This document shows positions 6,175 through 63,159 of a stretch of DNA of 64,000 nucleotides, in pieces. Numbering within the stretch: the first letter of the stretch is position 1; each line of letters begins with the position of its first letter. Made by a program: the position numbers and the translations under genes. The stretch lies in contig CP065011.1 in the NCBI GenBank assembly GCA_016699795.1, positions 819,449 through 883,448 on the forward strand. Direction: 5' to 3'. The notes under the pieces are model-generated. The model was not told where the DNA came from. It saw only the letters and a list, made by a program, of their open reading frames with translations, and did no database searches. The stretch comes from Candidatus Moraniibacteriota bacterium (GTDB taxonomy: Bacteria > Patescibacteriota > Minisyncoccia > Moranbacterales > GCA-2747515).

Positions 6175-6258
6175 GGGGATATGGCGAAATTGGTAGACGC
6201 GTCAGCTTCAGGGGCTGATAATAGCAATGTTATGAGAGTTCAAATCTCTCTATCCCCA
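6175..6258 (+). tRNA. tRNA-Leu (anticodon CAG)
   Basis: Cloverleaf folded by hand: acceptor GGGGATA/TATCCCC, anticodon stem TCAGC/GCTGA with loop TTCAGGG, a long variable arm, and T-stem GAGAG/CTCTC with loop TTCAAAT. CCA is not encoded. Confidence 0.8.
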
Positions 6259-27118: not shown

Positions 27119-27191
27119 TGTCCCCGGCAGGACTCGAACCTACAACCTTCTGGTCCGAAGCCAGACACTCTATCCATTGAGCTACGGGGAC
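27119..27191 (-). tRNA. tRNA-Arg (anticodon TCG)
   Basis: The reverse complement folds as acceptor GTCCCCG/CGGGGAC, anticodon stem TCTGG/CCAGA with loop CTTCGGA, and T-loop TTCGAGT. Confidence 0.8.
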
Positions 27192-27212
27192 TTTTTCTTC
27201 TTTGTGAAGAAG

Positions 27213-27286
27213 GGGGCGACTACTGGGAATTGAACCCAGATTCTTGGGACCACAACCCAATGTCCTACCATTGAACGATAGCCGCC
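27213..27286 (-). tRNA. tRNA-His (anticodon GTG) with encoded G-1
   Basis: The reverse complement folds as G-1 + GCGGCTA/TAGTCGC, anticodon stem TTGGG/CCCAA with loop TTGTGGT, and T-loop TTCAATT. G-1 pairs with discriminator C. Confidence 0.75.
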
Positions 27287-27350
27287 ATGTATCGTAAATT
27301 GTATCAACTTTTCTCGCTTATTGCGAGATGAGAACCCGCAATAACTTTTT

Positions 27351-27440
27351 TGTGCCCTCGGAGGGAATCGGTCACGAGTATTTTTCTAAAAGAAAAATCT
27401 CTCGACCCCACCTCGGGGTGCTTCGCACATCACTCCGGTT
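27351..27440 (-). repeat. tRNA-trailer repeat B: exact 20-nt copy of the tRNA-Arg(TCT) 3' end plus the ~65-nt conserved unit
   Basis: TGTGCCCTCGGAGGGAATCG at 27351-27370 is identical to 27495-27514, the T-arm 3' half plus acceptor 3' strand of tRNA-Arg(TCT). The sequence then diverges into the shared trailer unit. Confidence 0.5.
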
Positions 27441-27496
27441 TTCTCATCCCTCATGCACGTAAAGCAGTTTACGTGCTCTCGTGCACAAGAAACTTG

Positions 27497-27568
27497 TGCC
27501 CTCGGAGGGAATCGAACCCCCATCAAGAGCTTAGAAGACTCCTGCTCTATCCATTGAGCTACAAGGGC
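27497..27568 (-). tRNA. tRNA-Arg (anticodon TCT)
   Basis: The reverse complement folds as acceptor GCCCTTG/CGAGGGC, anticodon stem GGAGT/GCTCT (two GU pairs) with loop CTTCTAA, and T-loop TTCGATT. Confidence 0.8.
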
Positions 27569-27601
27569 TTTAAAAAAACAGTTTTCATCAATTCAACTAT
27601 G

Positions 27602-27674
27602 TGCGCGCAGAGGGATTCGAACCCCCGACCGTTTGGTTAAGAGCCAACTGCTCTACCAGCTGAGCTATGCGCGC
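27602..27674 (-). tRNA. tRNA-Lys (anticodon CTT)
   Basis: The reverse complement folds as acceptor GCGCGCA/TGCGCGC, anticodon loop CTCTTAA, and T-stem GGGGG/CCCTC with loop TTCGAAT. Confidence 0.8.
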
Positions 27675-48220: not shown

Positions 48221-48294
48221 GCCGCCATCGTCTAGCCCGGTCAGGACGCCAGGTTCTCATCCTGGTAACAGGGGTTCGAATCCCCTTAGCGGTA
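48221..48294 (+). tRNA. tRNA-Glu (anticodon CTC), with one acceptor-stem mismatch
   Basis: Anticodon stem CCAGG/CCTGG with loop TTCTCAT, T-stem AGGGG/CCCCT with loop TTCGAAT, and a D-arm like tRNA-Glu. The acceptor stem GCCGCCA/TAGCGGT has one C-A mismatch and one GU pair. Confidence 0.6.
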
Positions 48295-53709: not shown

Positions 53710-54861
53710 ATGATAAAGCGATTTTTTAGCCCTCTCGAGCCATTATTATGTCCGAATAAAGTATTGGTACTGTATGGACCACGAAGAGTTGGAAAAACAA
53801 CACTTCTCAAGGAACTTCTTGAAAAAACTTCTTTAAAGTATCGTTTTGATAGTGGTGAAAATTTACGAGTTCAAGAACTTTTTGCTTCTGGTGATTTTGA
53901 AAAAATGAAAGAATATGTTGGTGATAATGAGCTTATTGCTATTGATGAGGCTCAGCAAATACCTTCTATCGGAATGGGATTAAAAATCATAGTTGATCAG
54001 ATTCCTAGGATAAAGATTATTGTGACAGGTTCTTCGAGTTTTGAATTGTTTAATCAAATTGGAGAGCCTTTAGTGGGGAGAAAAAACACTCTTACTCTTT
54101 ATCCATTCGCTCAAGTTGAACTTAAAAATGAATTCAATATTTTTGATCTTAAAGAAAGACTTGAAGAATTCTTGATTTATGGTTCCTATCCAGATGTTTT
54201 TCTTGCTCCGAGTAAACAGGAAAAAATAATATTTCTCAATGATATTGTAGATTCTTATTTATTAAAGGATATTCTTGCTTTAGATGGCGTAAAAAAATCT
54301 CGAGTCTTAGTTGATCTTGTTACATTACTTGCTCTTCAAATTGGGAGCGAAGTTTCTCTTAACGAACTCGCACAACAACTCAATGCTAATGTGCGGACTA
54401 TCGAAAAATACCTCGATATACTAGAAAAGGGCTTTGTTATTACTTCACTTTCGACCTTAAAACGTAACCTCCGAAATGAAGTAAGGGGAAAGCGAAAATA
54501 TTATTTTCTTGATCTTGGTGTTCGTAATGCATTACTTTCACAATTTAATGAAATTGCTTTACGAAATGATGTAGGAGCTCTTTGGGAAAATTTTCTCTTT
54601 ATTGAACGATTGAAAAAATGTTCCTATCAGAAAATTTTTGCCAATCGATACTTTTGGAGAACGTACAATCAAAAAGAAATTGATCTTGTAGAAGAACGTG
54701 GAGGTGAGTTTTTTGCCTACGAATTCAAATGGAGTATGGACAAAAAACAACCACCAAAAGAATTTATAGAAGAATATACGCAATCTCATTTTGAAAATAT
54801 TACTCGAGAAAAGTATTGGGACTTTATCGCGGGAGAAAATGAAGACAAAGAGGGTGTATAA
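53710..54861 (+). CDS. AAA-family ATPase (AAA_14 / DUF4143-type ATP-binding protein)
   Basis: Walker A LVLYGPRRVGKTT, Walker B LIAIDEAQ, and the C-terminal DUF4143-like region; 383 aa. Confidence 0.65.
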   Translation: MIKRFFSPLEPLLCPNKVLVLYGPRRVGKTTLLKELLEKTSLKYRFDSGENLRVQELFASGDFEKMKEYVGDNELIAIDEAQQIPSIGMGLKIIVDQIPRIKIIVTGSSSFELFNQIGEPLVGRKNTLTLYPFAQVELKNEFNIFDLKERLEEFLIYGSYPDVFLAPSKQEKIIFLNDIVDSYLLKDILALDGVKKSRVLVDLVTLLALQIGSEVSLNELAQQLNANVRTIEKYLDILEKGFVITSLSTLKRNLRNEVRGKRKYYFLDLGVRNALLSQFNEIALRNDVGALWENFLFIERLKKCSYQKIFANRYFWRTYNQKEIDLVEERGGEFFAYEFKWSMDKKQPPKEFIEEYTQSHFENITREKYWDFIAGENEDKEGV

Positions 54862-54883: not shown

Positions 54884-54980
54884 GAGTGATGATGTTTTGT
54901 TTTTTCTGTCTTTGCGAGCGTAGCGAAGCAATCCAGAAATTCGGATGGACCGCCACGTTGCGGACTCCTCGCGGAATCGG
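54884..54980 (+). repeat. GC-rich structured repeat element, right copy, between the ATPase gene and the DGR target gene
   Basis: CGAGTGATGATG, GTCTTTGCGAGCGTAGCGAAGCAATCCAGA and GATGGACCGCCACGTTGCGGACTCCTCGCGGAATCGG match the left copy's sub-blocks at about 70 percent identity. Confidence 0.5.
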
Positions 54981-55083
54981 AGATCCAGCATTTCACAAAA
55001 AACACAAAACATCCTATACTAAAAAAAGAAAAAAGATTATTTCACAAACAAAAAAAAGAACATTTATTATACAATAAAATAGT

Positions 55084-56229
55084 ATGATGTTTACGAAAAA
55101 AAATACTCCCCCCAAACTACAAAGAACTCTTGATGGAATACGAAAAGAAAAAAACAATACTTATTCTATAAAAGAAAAAAAAGAAATCTCTCTTTCTTCT
55201 TTTTTTTCTTTCCTCTCCAAAAAAAGAAAACTCACTTCTACTTTCCTCTTAACCATTCTTATCTTAGGAGGAGTCTCTTTTTTCTTTTCAAAAAATATAA
55301 AAGGAGCAACGTATGGATGGATTCAAAGTAGTTGGATAGGAGGAGTAACAGTAAATACTGCTACACATACCAATAATCAAGAAAACTGGACGGAGTTTGC
55401 TTCGAAAGATACAAACATTGATACAACATCTACTCCTGGAGAAGTAAAAATTGTGGGAGTAAATAATAGCTGGATACAAACAAGTGATGCGGATTTCAAT
55501 GCGGGAACGAATGACGGTATTGTGGTGAGTGGAGGAGCTGTTTCTTCTCTCCGCCCTCCTGGAGCAAGTTGTACAAGTTATACGCAGTGTACGAGTTATT
55601 CTTGTACTGGGAATCTTTGTGGATCGGATAATGGCTGTGGCGTGGCTCAGGATGCGGATGGCAATCGTTATGGATCTATCTGGGTGGGGACACAATGCTG
55701 GCTCAATAGAAATCTTAATGTAGGAACGATGCTTGCAAGTGCAAGTACCCTTCCTACCAATAATGGAACGATAGAAAAATGGTGCTATGATAATAATAGT
55801 GCGAACTGTATTTCAGAAGGGGGTTTGTATCATTGGAGCGAAGCAATGAGTTGGGTAACGACAGAGGGAGCTCAAGGCATCTGCCCCACAGGTTGGCACA
55901 TACCAACGGATGCAGAACAAAACACGCTTGATCAGTACCTCAAAGACACGCTTGCAACCTGCAATGCTTCACGTTCAGGAGCGTATGATTGTATCAGTGC
56001 AGGAACCAAGCTCAAAGTAAATGGAATATCAAATATGAATATACCGCTCGCTGGTAACCGTCTTACCTCCGGCACGTTTGTCGTTCGAGGGGCGTACACG
56101 TACCTTTGGTCTTCGTCAGTTTCAGGCTCGGATGCTTGGTATCGTAATTTGAATTCTGGGTCTGATGGTGTCGGTCGCGGTCCTTATTCCCAGGCTTACG
56201 GGTTTAGTGTCCGTTGTCTCAAGAACTGA
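55084..56229 (+). CDS. DGR target protein: membrane-anchored, C-type-lectin-fold variable protein (FISUMP-like ligand-binding domain)
   Basis: N-terminal transmembrane helix, a Thr/Ser-rich linker, a DADGNRYGSIWVGTQCWLNRNLNVG block resembling the FISUMP domain, and a C-terminal VR ending ...AYGFSVRCLKN as in known DGR targets. Confidence 0.75.
   Translation: MMFTKKNTPPKLQRTLDGIRKEKNNTYSIKEKKEISLSSFFSFLSKKRKLTSTFLLTILILGGVSFFFSKNIKGATYGWIQSSWIGGVTVNTATHTNNQENWTEFASKDTNIDTTSTPGEVKIVGVNNSWIQTSDADFNAGTNDGIVVSGGAVSSLRPPGASCTSYTQCTSYSCTGNLCGSDNGCGVAQDADGNRYGSIWVGTQCWLNRNLNVGTMLASASTLPTNNGTIEKWCYDNNSANCISEGGLYHWSEAMSWVTTEGAQGICPTGWHIPTDAEQNTLDQYLKDTLATCNASRSGAYDCISAGTKLKVNGISNMNIPLAGNRLTSGTFVVRGAYTYLWSSSVSGSDAWYRNLNSGSDGVGRGPYSQAYGFSVRCLKN
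56041..56229 (+). repeat. DGR variable region (VR)
   Basis: The last 63 codons of the target gene. They align to the TR with substitutions confined to TR-adenine positions, plus one A/C difference. Confidence 0.85.
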
Positions 56230-56279
56230 TATATTTTCTTTTATTCTTTTTTTATTTTATTCTTTTTCCGAAAAAAAAT

Positions 56280-56642
56280 ATGGCAATGCATCATAATCTC
56301 CCAGTATATCGAGCGAGCTATGATTTTCTTAGAGATTTTTTTCTTTTTTCCAAACATATTCCAAAAGAGTATAAATATACCGTTGGGGAGAAAATAAAAA
56401 ATGAAGCCGTTGAAATGACTCTTTGTATTGTGGAAGCAAATGCATCCAGAGAAGGAAGAAAAGAAAAAATTCAAAAAGGAATCCTTCATTTAGAACGAAT
56501 ACGGCTTCTAATGAGGCTTTTAAAAGATACTAAAAATATAAGTTTAAAATCTTTTGCTCAATTATCTTTGGATCTAGAGACAGCCAGTAGACAACTTACA
56601 GGATGGAAGAATTATCAACAAAATGGCCAGAGTCGCGAATAG
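56280..56642 (+). CDS. avd: Avd-like accessory variability determinant (four-helix-bundle protein)
   Basis: ~120-aa basic helical protein between VR and TR (MAMHHNLPVYRASYDFLRDFF...VGEKIKNEAVEMTLCIVEANASREGRKEK), in the position and of the size and character of bAvd. The start is taken at the Met at 56280. Confidence 0.55.
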   Translation: MAMHHNLPVYRASYDFLRDFFLFSKHIPKEYKYTVGEKIKNEAVEMTLCIVEANASREGRKEKIQKGILHLERIRLLMRLLKDTKNISLKSFAQLSLDLETASRQLTGWKNYQQNGQSRE

Positions 56643-56782: not shown

Positions 56783-56974
56783 CATAACGCTCGCTGGTAA
56801 CCGTAATACCTCCGGCACGTTTGACAATCGAGGGACGAACACGAACCTTTGGTCTTCGTCAGTTTCAGGCTCGAATGCTTGGAATCGTAATTTGAATTCT
56901 GGGTCTGCTGGTGTCAATCGCAATCCTAATTCCCAGGCTAACGGGTTTAGTGTCCGTTGTCTCAAGAACTGATA
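56783..56974 (+). repeat. DGR template repeat (TR)
   Basis: Noncoding ~190-nt copy of the VR with A at every variable position and AAC/AAT codons in the VR frame; immediately upstream of the RT. Confidence 0.85.
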
Positions 56975-56985
56975 CGCGATGATGT

Positions 56986-58035
56986 ATGAAAAAAGAGGAT
57001 GTGGAGATTTATATTTACATCCTCGTCTCGCGTTTTTTTGAATCCCAATATTTTTCTATGAATAAACAAGAACTTTTTGAAAAAATTCTTTCTGCCTACT
57101 ATGACGCTCGAAAGAATAAAAGAAAAAGTCACGACGCAATTTTTTTTGAGATGAATTATGAAAAAGAATGTATGCGATTGTGTGAAGAGCTTATGGATAG
57201 AACGTATAGAATTTCACCCAGTTCTTGTTTTATTGTGAACAGACCAGTAAAAAGAGAAATTTTTGCCGGAGCTTTTCGTGATAGGGTTATTCATCATTTT
57301 CTTTTTAATGCTGTAAATCCCTGGTGTGAAACAATGTTTATCCGTGATACGTATAGTTGTCGAAAAGGAAAGGGAACCTCCTATGCCGTATCTCGTGCAA
57401 TACATTTTCTTCGCTCTGTTTCAAAAAATTATTCTTCGGATGCTTGGGTAATACGACTAGATATAGCGGGGTATTTTATGTCTATTCGAAAGGATATTTT
57501 ATTTTCTATCTTTGTAGATCTTTTAGAACGTCATCGAAACGCTATGTTATATGACTTTGATCTTCTTTTTTGGTTAGGACAAAAAATTATTGATAATAAT
57601 CCAATTTTTTCTGCTAAAGTGAAAGGAAAGAAAGAGGATTGGGTTGGGTTGCCGAGAAATAAAAGTCTTTATTGGGCTGAAAAAGGTTGCGGATTACCTA
57701 TCGGAAATTTAACAAGTCAACTTTTTGCAAATGTATATTTGAGTGATTTTGATTACTATGTTCGATCTATAGTTTCTCGTCTTGGGGGATGTTATGGGCG
57801 ATATGTAGATGATATTCTTATTTTTATACCTAAGAATAAGAATATTCGGACAGTTGTGCAATTACTCGAACAGCATCTTTTTAAAAAAAGACGGCTTTAT
57901 ATACATCCGAAAAAAATTTTCACACAACCGTATAAAAACGGTTTTTCTTTTGTTGGTAGATATATCCTTCCTTATAGAATATATATAAAACGAAAAACAA
58001 AACAGAATATGAAAAAAATTTTATTAAGAAGATGA
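56986..58035 (+). CDS. DGR reverse transcriptase
   Basis: RT motifs FRDRVIHHFLF (1/2), GLPIGNLTSQLFANVYLSDFD (B/4) and YGRYVDDILIF (C/5, YxDD); 349 aa. Confidence 0.85.
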   Translation: MKKEDVEIYIYILVSRFFESQYFSMNKQELFEKILSAYYDARKNKRKSHDAIFFEMNYEKECMRLCEELMDRTYRISPSSCFIVNRPVKREIFAGAFRDRVIHHFLFNAVNPWCETMFIRDTYSCRKGKGTSYAVSRAIHFLRSVSKNYSSDAWVIRLDIAGYFMSIRKDILFSIFVDLLERHRNAMLYDFDLLFWLGQKIIDNNPIFSAKVKGKKEDWVGLPRNKSLYWAEKGCGLPIGNLTSQLFANVYLSDFDYYVRSIVSRLGGCYGRYVDDILIFIPKNKNIRTVVQLLEQHLFKKRRLYIHPKKIFTQPYKNGFSFVGRYILPYRIYIKRKTKQNMKKILLRR

Positions 58036-58317
58036 ATACAATTTCAAAACGAAAGACAAAATAATAGAACTTGTGAAATTCATTCATTTCATGCTTGTTG
58101 GATATCGTATGAAGGTATATTTGAATATTGTAATGCTTATAAAGTAAGAGAAAGATGGACTTGTGTTTATAAAAAGAAGAAGAAAGAATTGGAATTGATA
58201 GAAATGAATACTATAAGAGTGTAACTGATGCAAGTCATTGGGTTCTTATTAGAGGGAAATAAAGAAGATTTTTTGAAAATTTTTTTGAAAATAAAAACTA
58301 TGGTATACTTGGAGGGT

Positions 58318-61300
58318 ATGAAATTTCTCAAACAAACAGCACAAAAAAGGAAAATACAGTTTTTTGTAGGAATGTTTTTTGTGGTGCTTGTGAATGTTTT
58401 TTCTGTGGGAGAGGCGAAGGCATATACTTTTGATACTAACTGGATATCGCCGATCAGATCGTATCCAACAGCGGTTGGTTTTGGCACTCTTTCTTGGACG
58501 GAAACTCCTGCTGTGGATGCAAGTGCTTTGATGTATATTCGTGCAGGGAATACAGCTATTCCTGATGGTTCATGGACGGATTGGACGGCTATTTCCAATG
58601 GAGGGAATCTTGCTGTCTTGGGGGTCAAAAAATATGTGCAACAAAAAATTAATTTCTTTGGAAATGGCTTAGCTGTTCCTGTTATTTCCGACATTACTTT
58701 ATCTACGTATTCTGGAGAGCTTTTTTCTTCGTCTTATGATACTAAAGCTTCTCTCAATCAAATCCTTTCTTTTCATTGGAATGCATTAGAATCTGGCTGG
58801 GGGAATACGGCGTTTCAGATACAAGTTTCTCGAGACAAAACAACATGGAATTCATGGTGTAGTGGAATGGAAAATCCAAGCGGAAATTGTGATACTTCGG
58901 TGTGGTTTGAAAATGATTCTGGAACGAATGAATCGACGGTTGTGATGGATAATGCACAGTATCGTTATATTCGATATAGACTTTTTTTTACAGGAAATAC
59001 TGAAAATACGGCTTCCATAGGGGATGTTCGTATAGAGTATGATAAAAAAATATACCAAACACATTTTACCAGCCCCGTCAAAGACTTTCTTTCCCCCTCT
59101 CTTTTCCAAACGCTTTCTTGGAATGAAACTCCGGGACTTGAAGCAGCACTCACTATGAATGTCCGATCAGGAAATACTCCAACACCTGACGGAACATGGT
59201 CTTCATGGATTCCCATTTCCAATGGGGGAGATATATCCCAATTTACAGGCAATCGCTATCTTCAGTATGAAGCAACGTTTTCTTCGTATGATGTAGATAC
59301 ATCAGTTATTCTTTCCGATGTAACAGTTGCTTACTCCCAATACCCCGTAGGCTCCTATCTTCTCACCTCTTCCCCCTACAACTCCACCGATACTGCGAAC
59401 CTCCTCTCTAAAATAGAATGGAATGAAACCATTCCTCCTCAAACAAATATACGTTTCCAACTCCGAACCGCACCAGATCTAACAGGATCTCCTGATTGGA
59501 ACAATGGTTCCAAATGGTGTGGACCTACAGATTGCGCCCTCACAACAAATAGCAATGACTTTGCTTCGAGTTTTTACGAAACAACACCACAAGGAGAATC
59601 TACCAATCCCATACATCTAGAAGGAAACAATGATCAATGGTTACAGTATGCTACCTGGCTTTCTAATGAAAACACCGGAGCCACTCCAACACTTTCTCAA
59701 GTAACGCTTACCTATCTGGTAAACGCTTCTCCTATGATTCAAAATGTAACTGCTACTCCCAATACAGATAAAACAGTAGATATCACCTACGAAGTCAAAG
59801 ATCCTGATACAACTACAGGAACCAATACTCCAGGATTTATTACTCCGAGCTTTTCCTATTGGGATGGAGATTCATGGGAAAGCATTGCTTCTAATACTCT
59901 AGCTCCCGAAGATGTACAAAACAAAGCAGTGAATCAAGATTCGTACACAACACACACAGCTACCTGGACTCCTTCACTTTCTCACTCAAATCTCTATCTT
60001 TCTGGATCAGCCAAGATTCGTGTCACTATAGGGGACAATGAAGGAGCAAATAATACAGCAAATGCAGAATCCAATACCTTTACATTGGATACAAAGATTC
60101 CAGAGAACCCTTCTCTTTCTATAGACGCATCCACTCAAGATCTTCTTGATACCAACACCACATCACTCCTTACTCTTTCTGTATCTGAAGACTCTCAACG
60201 ATTCATGAAAGTTTCTCTTTTTCCTGATCTCTCTGATACTGATTGGGAACCCCATACTCTTAACAAAACTATCAAACTCCAAAGTGATCCTGATACCGTC
60301 TACGCACAATTCAAAGATCAATACGGAAATGAAACACAAATCATTGCTACTGAGAGTATAGAGACTCCTTCTCATATCATGACACAAGATACTTCTAATC
60401 TTTATCTTACTCCTCCTGAATATCGAGTCTTTCTTAGTTTCAAACCATCAGAAATCTCTTCTCAAGAATTCTCTCGTTATGAACTCTTCAGAAAAGAAGA
60501 AGGGGGTTCTTATGGTACTGACCCTCATGATATACGAACAGTTCCTCAAGAAAACTTTCTTACTGATTCAGGAGGAGGTGTTGATCCTAATACTCTCTAT
60601 ACGTATAAAGTACGAACCAAAGATACACTCGGAAATATTTCTTTCTTTTCTCAAGAAGTAACTGCCAAAGCAAATGGCATCCAAGATGCAGGAGAGGGTG
60701 GTGGTGGAGTTGATGATAGTTCTCCTTCTATTGCCAACGTAACCGTAGAATCTAAAGACACCACAACCGTAACTATCACATGGGAAACAGATGAACTCTC
60801 TGACTCTCGTGTAGAATATGCAACCACTCCCAACACCTATACCAAACAAACAGGAGTCTCTACCTATGCTGACACCCAAGCACAATCAGGACTTCATAGA
60901 GTCACTCTTACCAACCTCACACCAAACACTCCCTACTTCTTTAGAGTTGCCTCTACTGATCCTCAAGGCAATACCGGAGTCAATGACAATAATGGCAATG
61001 GATATGAAGTCACAACGAATCCTGGACCTTCTATCAGTGGTGTAGCGGTATCAAGTGCTTCTAACACACAAGCAACCATATTCTGGAATACGAATGTCCC
61101 TGCAGACTCTGTACTCCATTACAGTGAAAACAAGAATGGATCTCTTATCGATCCTATCACTCTCTCCGGATCAAGTGTTCTTACAAAAAATCATCAAGTA
61201 ACCTTAGATGCTCTTACTCAAGGAACCACCTACTATTTCTACGTTACCTCCACCGACTCACAAGGAAACATTGCCAATGACAATAATGGAGGAAACTATT

Positions 61301-63159
61301 TTCAATTCTCTACAACACTCGACGAAACACCTCCTACCATAACGAATCTTCAAACATCTCTTATCTCAAATGACAAAGCAGTTATTACAGCAAACACAGA
61401 TGAAGAAGCATCCTTCCTCCTTCAGTACAGAAAAAAAGGAAGCCTTACCTTCACACAAACAGAACAAGGAACAACATACGATAGATCTCACTACAGGGTA
61501 CTCGATACTCTTACTCCTGATACAGAGTATGAATATCAAGTGAGTGTTAAAGATATCAATCAAAACGAATCACAGAGTGATATACAAACAATGAAAACAA
61601 CCTTAGATCCAGAATACAATCATGCACCTCTTTCAAAGATTCATACTATCAGTGATCCTCCTAAAGTACTCACTGATCAAAAAGCAGTCATAACCTTCCA
61701 GACGGATCAAGCAGCAAACTGCATCCTTGAATATGGAACCCAATCAAGAAACTACCAAGAAGTTCCTCAAACAGAAGCGACAGGAATCTATGACACACTC
61801 CATTCCCTGCATCTTGGAGGACTCATCTTTAACACAACCTACTTCTACAAACTTCTTTGTGAAGATAATCTTGGAACCCTCATAGAGAGTGAAGAAAAAA
61901 GCTTCACAACAAAACTCAAACAAGTAGACAGTGGAAGTGAACAAGCAGAATCTACTCCTCCCTCTATCTCAGGAGTCAAAGTCAAAGACATTACAGGAGA
62001 GAGTGCAGTGGTGAGTTGGGAGACGGATGAAGTTTCAAACTCACAGGTGAGGTATGGGACGACGGAGGAGATGGAAGAATTAAGAGGAAATGCTTTGATA
62101 AATACAGACATCGCTAAATTCTCAACAGCCCATTCTGTAACCTTGCGAGGACTCATTCCTTCAACAAAGTATTTTTTCAGTGCAAGCTCATACGACACCG
62201 CCGGAAACATAGGCACCTCCTCCCAACAAACCTTCCAAACGCAATCTCCTTCTTCCATCTCTTCCATTAAAGCTTCTTCCAAACAAATAGGGGAAACAAC
62301 TATCACATGGAAAACTTCCACTCCCACTACCTCTATTGTTGAATATGGAAACACAGAAAACTATGGACAAACAAGAAAAAGTGAAGAACTCAAAAAAGAT
62401 CATGAAATTATCATAAACAATCTTTTAGAAAACTCTACCTACCACTTCCGAGTAAAAGGAGAAGATGAATCAAAAAATCTCTTCTCTTCTTCCGACTCTA
62501 CCTTTGAACCAAAGTCTCCACCACAAATCAAAGAAATCAAGATAGAAGTTCTTTCAGACAGAGAAGCAAAAGTAAACTTCCTTACTGATACTCTTACCGA
62601 CTCTCTTGTAACCTACAAAAACAAAAACAAAGAAGAAGATCAAAAGAGTGAAGGAAATCCCTCCCTCCTCCAAACTCACTCCCTCACCCTCAAAGAACTC
62701 ACTCCTGGAGAAAACTACGTTCTTACTGTACGAGTCAGAGATGATATGGGAAATGAAACTCTCTCTGATGAGATAGAATTCACTATGCAAAAAGATGAAA
62801 CTTCTCCTACAGTAGAAAGAGTCTCTACCGACTCCGCTCTTTCACAAAACGGAAAAGTACAAATGATTATTAACTGGCAAACAGATGAAGATGCTTCTTC
62901 CTCCCTCATCTACAAAGAAGGAAGAGCAGGAGAAGAAAAAACAGTGAATGTAAGTTCTTCCCCAACAAAGAATCACATCATTGTACTCACCTCTTGGAAA
63001 CCAGGAACTCTCTACTCTTACAAAGTCATAGTAAAAGATCTGAGTGGGAATGAAACCATAACCAAAGACTACATCACCCTTACACCACAAACAAAAGAAT
63101 CTGTTGTAGAACTCATCATAAAGAACTTCAAAGAAATCTTTGCTTGGACGGGAGGGTAG
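58318..63159 (+). CDS. giant secreted surface protein with about eight tandem fibronectin type III-like repeats
   Basis: Signal peptide MKFLKQT...VGEAKA. The C-terminal ~800 aa consist of ~100-aa units of the form ...SI(S/A)xVxV....TxAxIxWxTDE.SxSxVxYG....Y.....L.......L.P.T.YYFRV. 1643 aa from the track start. Confidence 0.5.
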   Translation: MKFLKQTAQKRKIQFFVGMFFVVLVNVFSVGEAKAYTFDTNWISPIRSYPTAVGFGTLSWTETPAVDASALMYIRAGNTAIPDGSWTDWTAISNGGNLAVLGVKKYVQQKINFFGNGLAVPVISDITLSTYSGELFSSSYDTKASLNQILSFHWNALESGWGNTAFQIQVSRDKTTWNSWCSGMENPSGNCDTSVWFENDSGTNESTVVMDNAQYRYIRYRLFFTGNTENTASIGDVRIEYDKKIYQTHFTSPVKDFLSPSLFQTLSWNETPGLEAALTMNVRSGNTPTPDGTWSSWIPISNGGDISQFTGNRYLQYEATFSSYDVDTSVILSDVTVAYSQYPVGSYLLTSSPYNSTDTANLLSKIEWNETIPPQTNIRFQLRTAPDLTGSPDWNNGSKWCGPTDCALTTNSNDFASSFYETTPQGESTNPIHLEGNNDQWLQYATWLSNENTGATPTLSQVTLTYLVNASPMIQNVTATPNTDKTVDITYEVKDPDTTTGTNTPGFITPSFSYWDGDSWESIASNTLAPEDVQNKAVNQDSYTTHTATWTPSLSHSNLYLSGSAKIRVTIGDNEGANNTANAESNTFTLDTKIPENPSLSIDASTQDLLDTNTTSLLTLSVSEDSQRFMKVSLFPDLSDTDWEPHTLNKTIKLQSDPDTVYAQFKDQYGNETQIIATESIETPSHIMTQDTSNLYLTPPEYRVFLSFKPSEISSQEFSRYELFRKEEGGSYGTDPHDIRTVPQENFLTDSGGGVDPNTLYTYKVRTKDTLGNISFFSQEVTAKANGIQDAGEGGGGVDDSSPSIANVTVESKDTTTVTITWETDELSDSRVEYATTPNTYTKQTGVSTYADTQAQSGLHRVTLTNLTPNTPYFFRVASTDPQGNTGVNDNNGNGYEVTTNPGPSISGVAVSSASNTQATIFWNTNVPADSVLHYSENKNGSLIDPITLSGSSVLTKNHQVTLDALTQGTTYYFYVTSTDSQGNIANDNNGGNYFQFSTTLDETPPTITNLQTSLISNDKAVITANTDEEASFLLQYRKKGSLTFTQTEQGTTYDRSHYRVLDTLTPDTEYEYQVSVKDINQNESQSDIQTMKTTLDPEYNHAPLSKIHTISDPPKVLTDQKAVITFQTDQAANCILEYGTQSRNYQEVPQTEATGIYDTLHSLHLGGLIFNTTYFYKLLCEDNLGTLIESEEKSFTTKLKQVDSGSEQAESTPPSISGVKVKDITGESAVVSWETDEVSNSQVRYGTTEEMEELRGNALINTDIAKFSTAHSVTLRGLIPSTKYFFSASSYDTAGNIGTSSQQTFQTQSPSSISSIKASSKQIGETTITWKTSTPTTSIVEYGNTENYGQTRKSEELKKDHEIIINNLLENSTYHFRVKGEDESKNLFSSSDSTFEPKSPPQIKEIKIEVLSDREAKVNFLTDTLTDSLVTYKNKNKEEDQKSEGNPSLLQTHSLTLKELTPGENYVLTVRVRDDMGNETLSDEIEFTMQKDETSPTVERVSTDSALSQNGKVQMIINWQTDEDASSSLIYKEGRAGEEKTVNVSSSPTKNHIIVLTSWKPGTLYSYKVIVKDLSGNETITKDYITLTPQTKESVVELIIKNFKEIFAWTGG

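Follow-up and report, generated by a model that had tools for sequence, protein, structure and literature searches.

Introduction

Proteins that carry a Fib_succ_major (FISUMP) or DUF1566-type domain are a described class of targets of diversity-generating retroelements (DGRs). They account for 14% of a curated DGR set (Wu et al., PMC5758913), in which the corresponding class of variable repeat (VR), CLec2 or category 'd', is placed in the fold of C-type lectins (CLec), and 43 FISUMP targets have been reported, mostly from freshwater and wastewater metagenome-assembled genomes (MAGs; PMC11661182). Many members of the family are described as having a lipoprotein signal, which is however not among its defining features (PMC5758913, PMC11661182). 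The targets of DGR clade 2 of the Candidate Phyla Radiation (CPR) are typically without a recognisable transmembrane or conserved domain (Roux et al., 2021, PMC8144416). [quoted passage not shown] Here, we describe a DGR in a 64,000-nt stretch of Candidatus Moraniibacteriota DNA (GCA_016699795.1, contig CP065011.1, positions 819,449 to 883,448), the whole of which is called the window below. Its target gene lies at window positions 55,084 to 56,229, and the product is likely to be a surface protein of Candidatus Moraniibacteriota, a CPR lineage, that spans the membrane once in N-in/C-out orientation and has a C-terminal FISUMP domain that carries the VR of a complete chromosomal DGR. A preliminary description of the window had already named FISUMP as a known DGR target class, in agreement with category 'd'/CLec2 (PMC5758913) and with the 43 FISUMP targets (PMC11661182).

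Results

A complete chromosomal DGR

The DGR comprises the following features, with coordinates referring to the window:

55084..56229, + strand: DGR target gene (variable protein), 381 aa, from the list of open reading frames (ORFs)
56041..56231, + strand: VR, covering aa 320-381 and the stop codon (the last 62 codons); a 191-nt repeat with 91% identity to the template repeat (TR)
56280..56642, + strand: avd accessory gene (four-helix-bundle bAvd); PF22296 bAvd, E 3.8e-13 and 50.3 bits (cut-off 40)
56784..56974, + strand: TR, a 191-nt direct repeat of the VR
56986..58035, + strand: DGR reverse transcriptase (RT), 349 aa, directly after the TR; RVT_1, E 2.1e-12, YVDD present

The locus is a complete DGR with target, avd, TR and RT. 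The avd gene sits between the VR and the TR, and its product matched the NCBIfam equivalog NF033474 with E 7.5e-12 and 45.5 bits, which is under the cut-off of 80. The RT is 27% identical to Brt of the Bordetella phage (E 2e-25), with which it has the motif PIGxLTSQLFANVY in common, and the aligned DGR-type motif, PIGNLTSQLFANVY, agrees with the pattern I/LGxxxSQ. The target protein is 100% identical to the NCBI entry 'hypothetical protein IPN70_04085' of a Candidatus Moraniibacteriota MAG, encoded on a contig of 1,186,598 bp, and the G+C content of the window is ∼35%. As a true murD gene (TIGR01087, E 1.7e-109) is located two genes upstream of the target, the context of the DGR is chromosomal and not that of a phage. 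A repeat search found no second VR of this TR within the window. The preliminary description had proposed the gene as a DGR target, and this identity is borne out by the adenine-biased VR/TR pair, avd, the RT and the FISUMP domain.

Comparison of the two repeats showed 18 mismatches, 17 of which fall on adenines of the TR that are replaced by another base in the VR (binomial p 3e-10, with 23.6% A in the TR). Read in frame, the TR contains 13 AAY codons, at positions 325, 327, 334, 338, 340, 350, 353, 355, 357, 364, 366, 368 and 372, and additionally several single-adenine codons. Taken together, these codons give a theoretical diversity of ∼10^21.7 DNA variants and ∼10^19.5 protein variants, none of them with a stop codon. 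Between the AAY codons lie the invariant scaffold residues G324, R326, F332, W342, S344, R354, L356, R365, G373, S375, R377 and C378. The residues that currently differ from those encoded by the TR through adenine changes are P321, L327, V333, V334, A337, Y338, Y340, D350, Y353, G364, G366, Y368 and Y372, and a further difference, D361, arose via a non-adenine change. The list of variable residues given in the preliminary description was thus right in most entries, and erred in counting one glycine too many (G336 is encoded by GGG in both repeats) and in missing D361.

Evidence for turnover of the VR was obtained from a related strain, represented by the ENA metagenome contig L001 (protein P0002), in which target, avd and TR occur in the same arrangement. 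In the part of the target gene that lies upstream of the VR (735 nt), the two strains are 92.7% identical (54 mismatches). The TR is identical in all 154 of the 154 nt that the L001 contig covers, whereas the VRs differ at 16 sites, 14 of which correspond to TR adenines. Diverging VRs beside a constant TR are what mutagenic retrohoming would be expected to leave behind. We regard the target as genuine and the DGR as probably active. In L001 (4398-4687) the 154 identical nucleotides of the TR are followed by unrelated sequence, and the RT is absent from the contig; the break would stem either from an assembly junction in the repeat or from loss of the RT.

Several observations speak against an active element. 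The lone non-adenine mismatch between the repeats (TR C56908 against VR A56165) changes a GCT alanine codon to GAT, which encodes Asp361. Downstream of the VR, only A/T-rich inverted repeats and no GC-rich hairpin were found, and no asymmetry between the initiation of mutagenic homing site (IMH) and its counterpart IMH* was visible, as beyond the last adenine mismatch the VR equals the TR up to the 3' end. The turnover described above was, moreover, seen between strains and not within a population, which limits what it says about ongoing mutagenesis. The non-adenine mismatch, the missing IMH/IMH* distinction and hairpin, and the L001 contig, with its TR stopping after 154 nt and no RT, would fit a decayed relic in which the VR/TR differences are fossils of past activity. 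We consider such decay improbable, since the ORFs of Avd and of the RT (349 aa, in which the catalytic YVDD and the motif IGxLTSQ are present) are intact, the TR still has its full set of 13 AAY codons, and two strains that differ by 7% in the flanking gene have a 100% conserved TR but VRs that differ at adenine sites. The break in L001 may be an assembly junction at the repeat, and the VR of that strain retains the TR base at the D361 site. An IMH/IMH* asymmetry and a 3' hairpin belong to the paradigm of the Bordetella phage BPP-1 and are not required for membership in DGR surveys.

The VR is part of a single FISUMP domain

The scaffold that bears the VR was identified by profile searches:

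55657..56226, + strand: FISUMP / Fib_succ_major domain, aa 192-381, the VR-bearing scaffold

Two family models matched the target above their curated cut-offs. PF09603 (Fib_succ_major) aligned with aa 201-380 over positions 3-187 of its 187 (E 1.3e-24, 87.9 bits, cut-off 33.9) and TIGR02145 with aa 192-381 over positions 7-176 of its 176 (E 1.1e-25, 91.3 bits, cut-off 41.65). The Cys-containing stretch DADGNRYGSIWVGTQCW, in which a resemblance to the FISUMP family had been noticed beforehand, forms the start of the significant Fib_succ_major match, and the resemblance is confirmed by both models. The reported terminus AYGFSVRC was likewise found, with the protein ending in ...AYGFSVRCLKN. The AlphaFold2 (AF2) model of aa 183-381 was one compact domain with a pLDDT of 97.3 and a pTM of 0.92. 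Among 120 homologs, C185, C205, C234, C242, C267 and C378 were conserved in at least 90%, which suggests extracellular disulfides.

The preliminary description had divided this region into a FISUMP-like module and a separate module of C-type lectin or formylglycine-generating enzyme (FGE) fold that bears the VR. The distance of ∼120 residues between the FISUMP-like Cys motif and the VR could be read in this way. The alignments to both profiles, however, run without interruption from aa 192 or 201 to aa 380 or 381, and coverage of this kind already refutes the division: one FISUMP domain extends to the last residue and contains the VR. The compact AF2 span (pTM 0.92) and the lack of a match to FGE-sulfatase or any other second domain in the target and 88 homologs point the same way, and an arrangement of two modules is scarcely credible. 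The FGE-fold label could not be upheld for the target or for any of the 88 homologs: PF03781 (FGE-sulfatase) did not match the target at E values up to 10 and was not among the 25 families listed for the homologs (E ≤0.01).

The diversified positions stand out in the family as a whole. In the alignment of 120 homologs, the 13 AAY positions had a mean column entropy of 3.32 bits, compared with 1.76 bits for the rest of the VR (Mann-Whitney p 1.3e-6). Along the predicted strands 350-357 and 363-369, high-entropy positions alternate with near-invariant ones (R354, L356, V363 and R365). Judging from the alignment, burial is unlikely for positions at which 15 different residues occur in nature. An attempt to assign the variable residues to faces by manual strand pairing, based on the DSSP string, is not relied on, as the third strand had an ambiguous register.

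Probable relation of the domain to the C-type lectin fold

Comparisons with solved structures did not yield a direct assignment to the CLec fold. With the full-length model, a Foldseek search of the PDB returned nothing below E 0.55, and with the domain model the best match had an E value of 1.2, with TM scores of at most 0.37. Neither Mtd of BPP-1 nor TvpA of Treponema denticola was among the 50 PDB matches listed for the domain model. An hhalign comparison of the family profile with Mtd was not significant (probability 0.45%) and aligned only GLY.W.EAM...G.HIPT..E, and sequence and profile searches of the PDB gave a single insignificant match, to a coat protein (E 0.74).

C-type lectins nevertheless made up 18 of the 50 top PDB matches listed, all of them weak and with a root-mean-square deviation of 12-15 Å for the lectin matches; they include CEL-I, the snake-venom proteins EMS16, ZK002, rhodocetin and botrocetin, as well as CLEC4D, Mincle, dectin-2, Reg3-alpha and ovocleidin-17. 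Among predicted viral structures (BFVD), Foldseek significantly matched two phage FISUMP proteins (E 1.3e-10 and 2.3e-5), followed by a DUF1566 protein (E 0.03). Furthermore, 30 of the 88 homologs also matched Lcl_C (PF07603, formerly DUF1566), with E values down to 2.6e-15. Because no solved relative is significant, the link to the CLec fold is indirect and rests on these Lcl_C cross-matches, on the Lcl-CTD structure and on the class defined by Wu et al. By this route, it is probable that the VR-bearing domain belongs to the CLec fold. The FISUMP scaffold has no detectable solved relative despite the very confident model, a gap that an experimental structure of a CLec2-type protein would fill.

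The N-terminal half of the target

The remainder of the protein was divided into three parts:

55084..55233, + strand: Lys-rich N-terminal tail, aa 1-50; 14 K/R against 4 D/E; pLDDT <50
55234..55287, + strand: single hydrophobic helix, aa 51-68, from Kyte-Doolittle hydropathy and AF2
55288..55656, + strand: predicted extracellular spacer, aa 69-191; pLDDT 48-86; with conserved motifs and a Cys cluster

The hydrophobic segment TSTFLLTILILGGVSFFFS forms the only strong hydropathy peak of the protein (maximum of 2.05 for a 19-residue Kyte-Doolittle window, at aa 50-68), and AF2 placed a helix at aa 51-67. All 12 cysteines are located C-terminal to this helix and none precedes residue 163; there is accordingly no lipobox Cys in the target, which has a predicted transmembrane helix in place of a lipoprotein signal. 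The Lys-rich tail, the single hydropathy peak and the position of all cysteines after the helix point to an N-in/C-out signal-anchor. The protein is very likely anchored by this one N-terminal helix with its remainder outside the cell, and the tail of 50 residues, which is conserved in the strains P0002 and P0003, would be cytoplasmic. The N-terminal transmembrane anchor of the preliminary description is therefore retained, on the strength of the hydropathy peak of 2.05, the AF2 helix, the positive-inside bias and the distribution of the cysteines. Its Ser/Thr-rich stalk is not: serine and threonine make up 25% of aa 69-190 and 22% of the whole protein, which is no marked enrichment. For the spacer, aa 69-191, no match to Pfam or to another known family was obtained. 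It contains the conserved GATYGWIQSSWIGG motif, a second motif, W.QTSDADF, and a Cys cluster of the form CX5CX4CX4C (C163, C169, C174 and C179). The motif [YFHW]GW.Q..W.GG of the spacer was present in 28 of the 120 homologs.

The same segment could also be the hydrophobic core of a Sec signal peptide, in which case the protein would be cleaved near KGA/TYGW and would be secreted or bound to the cell wall instead of tethered to the membrane. Some features of the family weigh on this side and against a signal-anchor: [AK]KGATYGW directly follows the hydrophobic stretch and is conserved in distant homologs, some of which have short, signal-peptide-like N-termini (P0055 and the ORFs of L006 and L004), and P0055 is named 'putative lipoprotein' by NCBI. 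An n-region of 50 aa that is conserved between strains would, on the other hand, be atypical for a cleaved signal peptide, and the target has no lipobox Cys. Under the general -3/-1 rule, the Lys at -3 of the putative cleavage site is unfavourable, which also counts against cleavage. We therefore regard a cleaved signal peptide as rather unlikely and the signal-anchor as the better description of the helix.

Two paralogs were found in the same 1.19-Mb genome outside the window, P0013 (IPN70_05320) and P0023 (IPN70_03575). Residues 1-104 (tail, transmembrane helix and GATYGW module; window 55084-55395) are 100% identical in the target and both paralogs. Beyond residue 104 there is an abrupt fall for P0023, which is only ∼60% identical to the target until about aa 180, and P0013, by inspection, diverges too. 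The heads of the paralogs differ, one being a divergent FISUMP domain (E 3.2e-9) and the other a weak Lcl_C-like domain (E 0.006). Compared by eye with the peptide encoded by the TR, the C-terminus of P0013 differs at non-adenine positions too, and P0013 is probably not a target of the TR. The identical 5' anchor cassette suggests recent gene conversion or recurrent recombination between the genes. As a tentative idea, the target may belong to a group of modular surface lectins in which the anchor is shared and the heads are swapped, with the DGR additionally diversifying only one of the three heads. If this were true, coarse exchange of heads and fine tuning by the DGR could act together on the attachment repertoire of a CPR cell.

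A shared pattern of template codons in related loci

For comparison, 80 related loci were fetched from reference genomes; the source genome of the window was not among them. An adenine-biased VR/TR pair was found beside the FISUMP gene in 12 of the 80. In 11 of these 12 loci, the TR has Asn codons at the same positions, according to the pattern LAGNRNT.GSFNN...NAN.WSS...AWNRNLN...VNRN.N..ANGFSVRC. An N-terminal hydrophobic segment was present in nine of the 12 targets, two of which have type IV pilin-like N-termini.

The two pilin-like cases, L017 (5497-6642) and L024 (5545-6645), are DGR-diversified FISUMP targets (KAFTLVELLVVIAIIGLL), and PF07963 (N_methyl) was matched by 2 of the 88 homologs. 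As judged from their sequences, proteins of this type would be DGR-varied lectin heads on pilin-like proteins.

These comparisons also bear on the purpose of the variation. The target might be a surface receptor exploited by phages, which the DGR varies so that adsorption is escaped; such evasion was raised by Roux et al. (2021, PMC8144416) for cellular membrane-bound DGR targets, and the sequence holds nothing that separates it from the acquisition of binding. Yet a lectin-like binding domain serves as the scaffold, the pattern of AAY codons recurs position for position across 11 independent loci, as expected of a designed binding site, and two relatives bear the same head on type IV pilin-like N-termini, which suggests outward-directed adhesion. 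Evasion as the main role is thus unlikely, and variation in the service of binding is preferred.

Surroundings of the locus

Immediately upstream of the target, a gene for an AAA_14/DUF4143 ATPase was found (window 53710-54861, +; E 2.8e-26 and 1.4e-36). Directly after the RT lies a gene for a protein of 1643 aa (window 58228-63159, +) with Pur_ac_phosph_N-type matches in six stretches and fn3 matches in three (E 2.9e-53 and 2.6e-27). This protein matched no NCBIfam family, contains no VR of the DGR TR, and is probably a large surface protein. Scans for promoters and terminators at the locus gave nothing above chance. The Rfam scan of the window returned only tRNAs, with a cluster of four at 27119-27674 (-) and further tRNAs at 6175-6258 and 48221-48294.

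A GC-rich element of ∼80 nt is located just upstream of the target ORF (window 54900-55000) in otherwise AT-rich surroundings. It occurs as a single copy in the window and in about three copies in the related strain L001 (2369-2583, 2598-2638 and 2666-2752), where two copies fall inside the annotated 5' end of the longer target ORF of that strain (441 aa). When folded as RNA, the element was not significant (z = -1.39).

Discussion

The proposed protein would consist of four parts. A short, basic tail would lie in the cytoplasm, followed by a single membrane helix, an extracellular spacer of ∼120 aa with a small Cys cluster, and a C-terminal FISUMP domain that would serve as a disulfide-rich, DUF1566/Lcl_C-related, C-type-lectin-like scaffold. 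By analogy with the Bordetella phage paradigm, the TR would be transcribed and then reverse-transcribed by the RT together with Avd; adenines would be copied unfaithfully, and the resulting cDNA would replace the VR. The most likely role of the diversified positions is to form a surface for ligand binding, with a glycan or protein borne by a host cell, a particle or a phage as the probable ligand. In this manner, an organism with a small genome could quickly retune its binding specificity.

The locus provides a well-resolved example of a CPR bacterium that appears to vary a surface lectin-like protein by means of a DGR. It indicates that a hydrophobic anchor and a recognisable Pfam domain do occur in some of the CPR DGR targets, whereas the opposite was reported as typical in the survey of Roux et al. 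(PMC8144416). It further adds TR Asn-codon positions that are common to at least 11 independent related loci, and a domain boundary, in that the VR lies within the FISUMP domain and not in a separate lectin module. The general understanding of DGRs is unchanged by these results.

Comparison with known systems

With the DGRs of BPP-1 (Mtd) and T. denticola (TvpA), whose variable proteins have solved structures of the CLec fold, the locus shares the order target-avd-TR-RT, a homologous RT, a C-terminal VR and the alternation of AAY codons with scaffold residues. Mtd differs in that no similarity of the variable domain was detectable by sequence, profile or Foldseek (among the 50 Foldseek matches listed), and it is a tail-fibre protein of a phage and not a cellular membrane protein. 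TvpA is of the FGE type, while the target has no FGE-sulfatase match. Lcl-CTD of Legionella is connected to the target through Lcl_C, which is matched by 30 of the 88 FISUMP homologs, and through the C-type lectin-like proteins that dominate the weak Foldseek matches of the target. The target itself is below every Lcl_C threshold, and in Lcl-CTD, a trimer carried by a collagen stalk, disulfides are absent (PMC11162425), whereas the domain described here contains eight cysteines.

CPR DGR clade 2 (Roux et al., 2021) comes from the same host phylum, Patescibacteria. Unlike the typical clade-2 targets of that survey, the target and nine of the 12 related loci combine a hydrophobic N-terminal segment with a clear Pfam domain.

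Close agreement is seen with category 'd'/CLec2 of Wu et al., in which the VR likewise lies at the extreme C-terminus of a Fib_succ_major/DUF1566-type domain ending in ...GFSVRC, the protein has a membrane-targeting signal at its N-terminus and is exposed at the surface, and the cassette includes avd, TR and RT. The member LdtA differs in being an outer-membrane lipoprotein of a diderm bacterium that is encoded on an integrative conjugative element; the target has a predicted transmembrane helix and no lipobox, and its gene lies on the chromosome near murD in a CPR host. The FISUMP targets of PMC11661182 have the same domain as the target. The target is an ordinary further case of the published FISUMP/DUF1566 ('CLec2') DGR targets, which are known from wastewater MAGs too.

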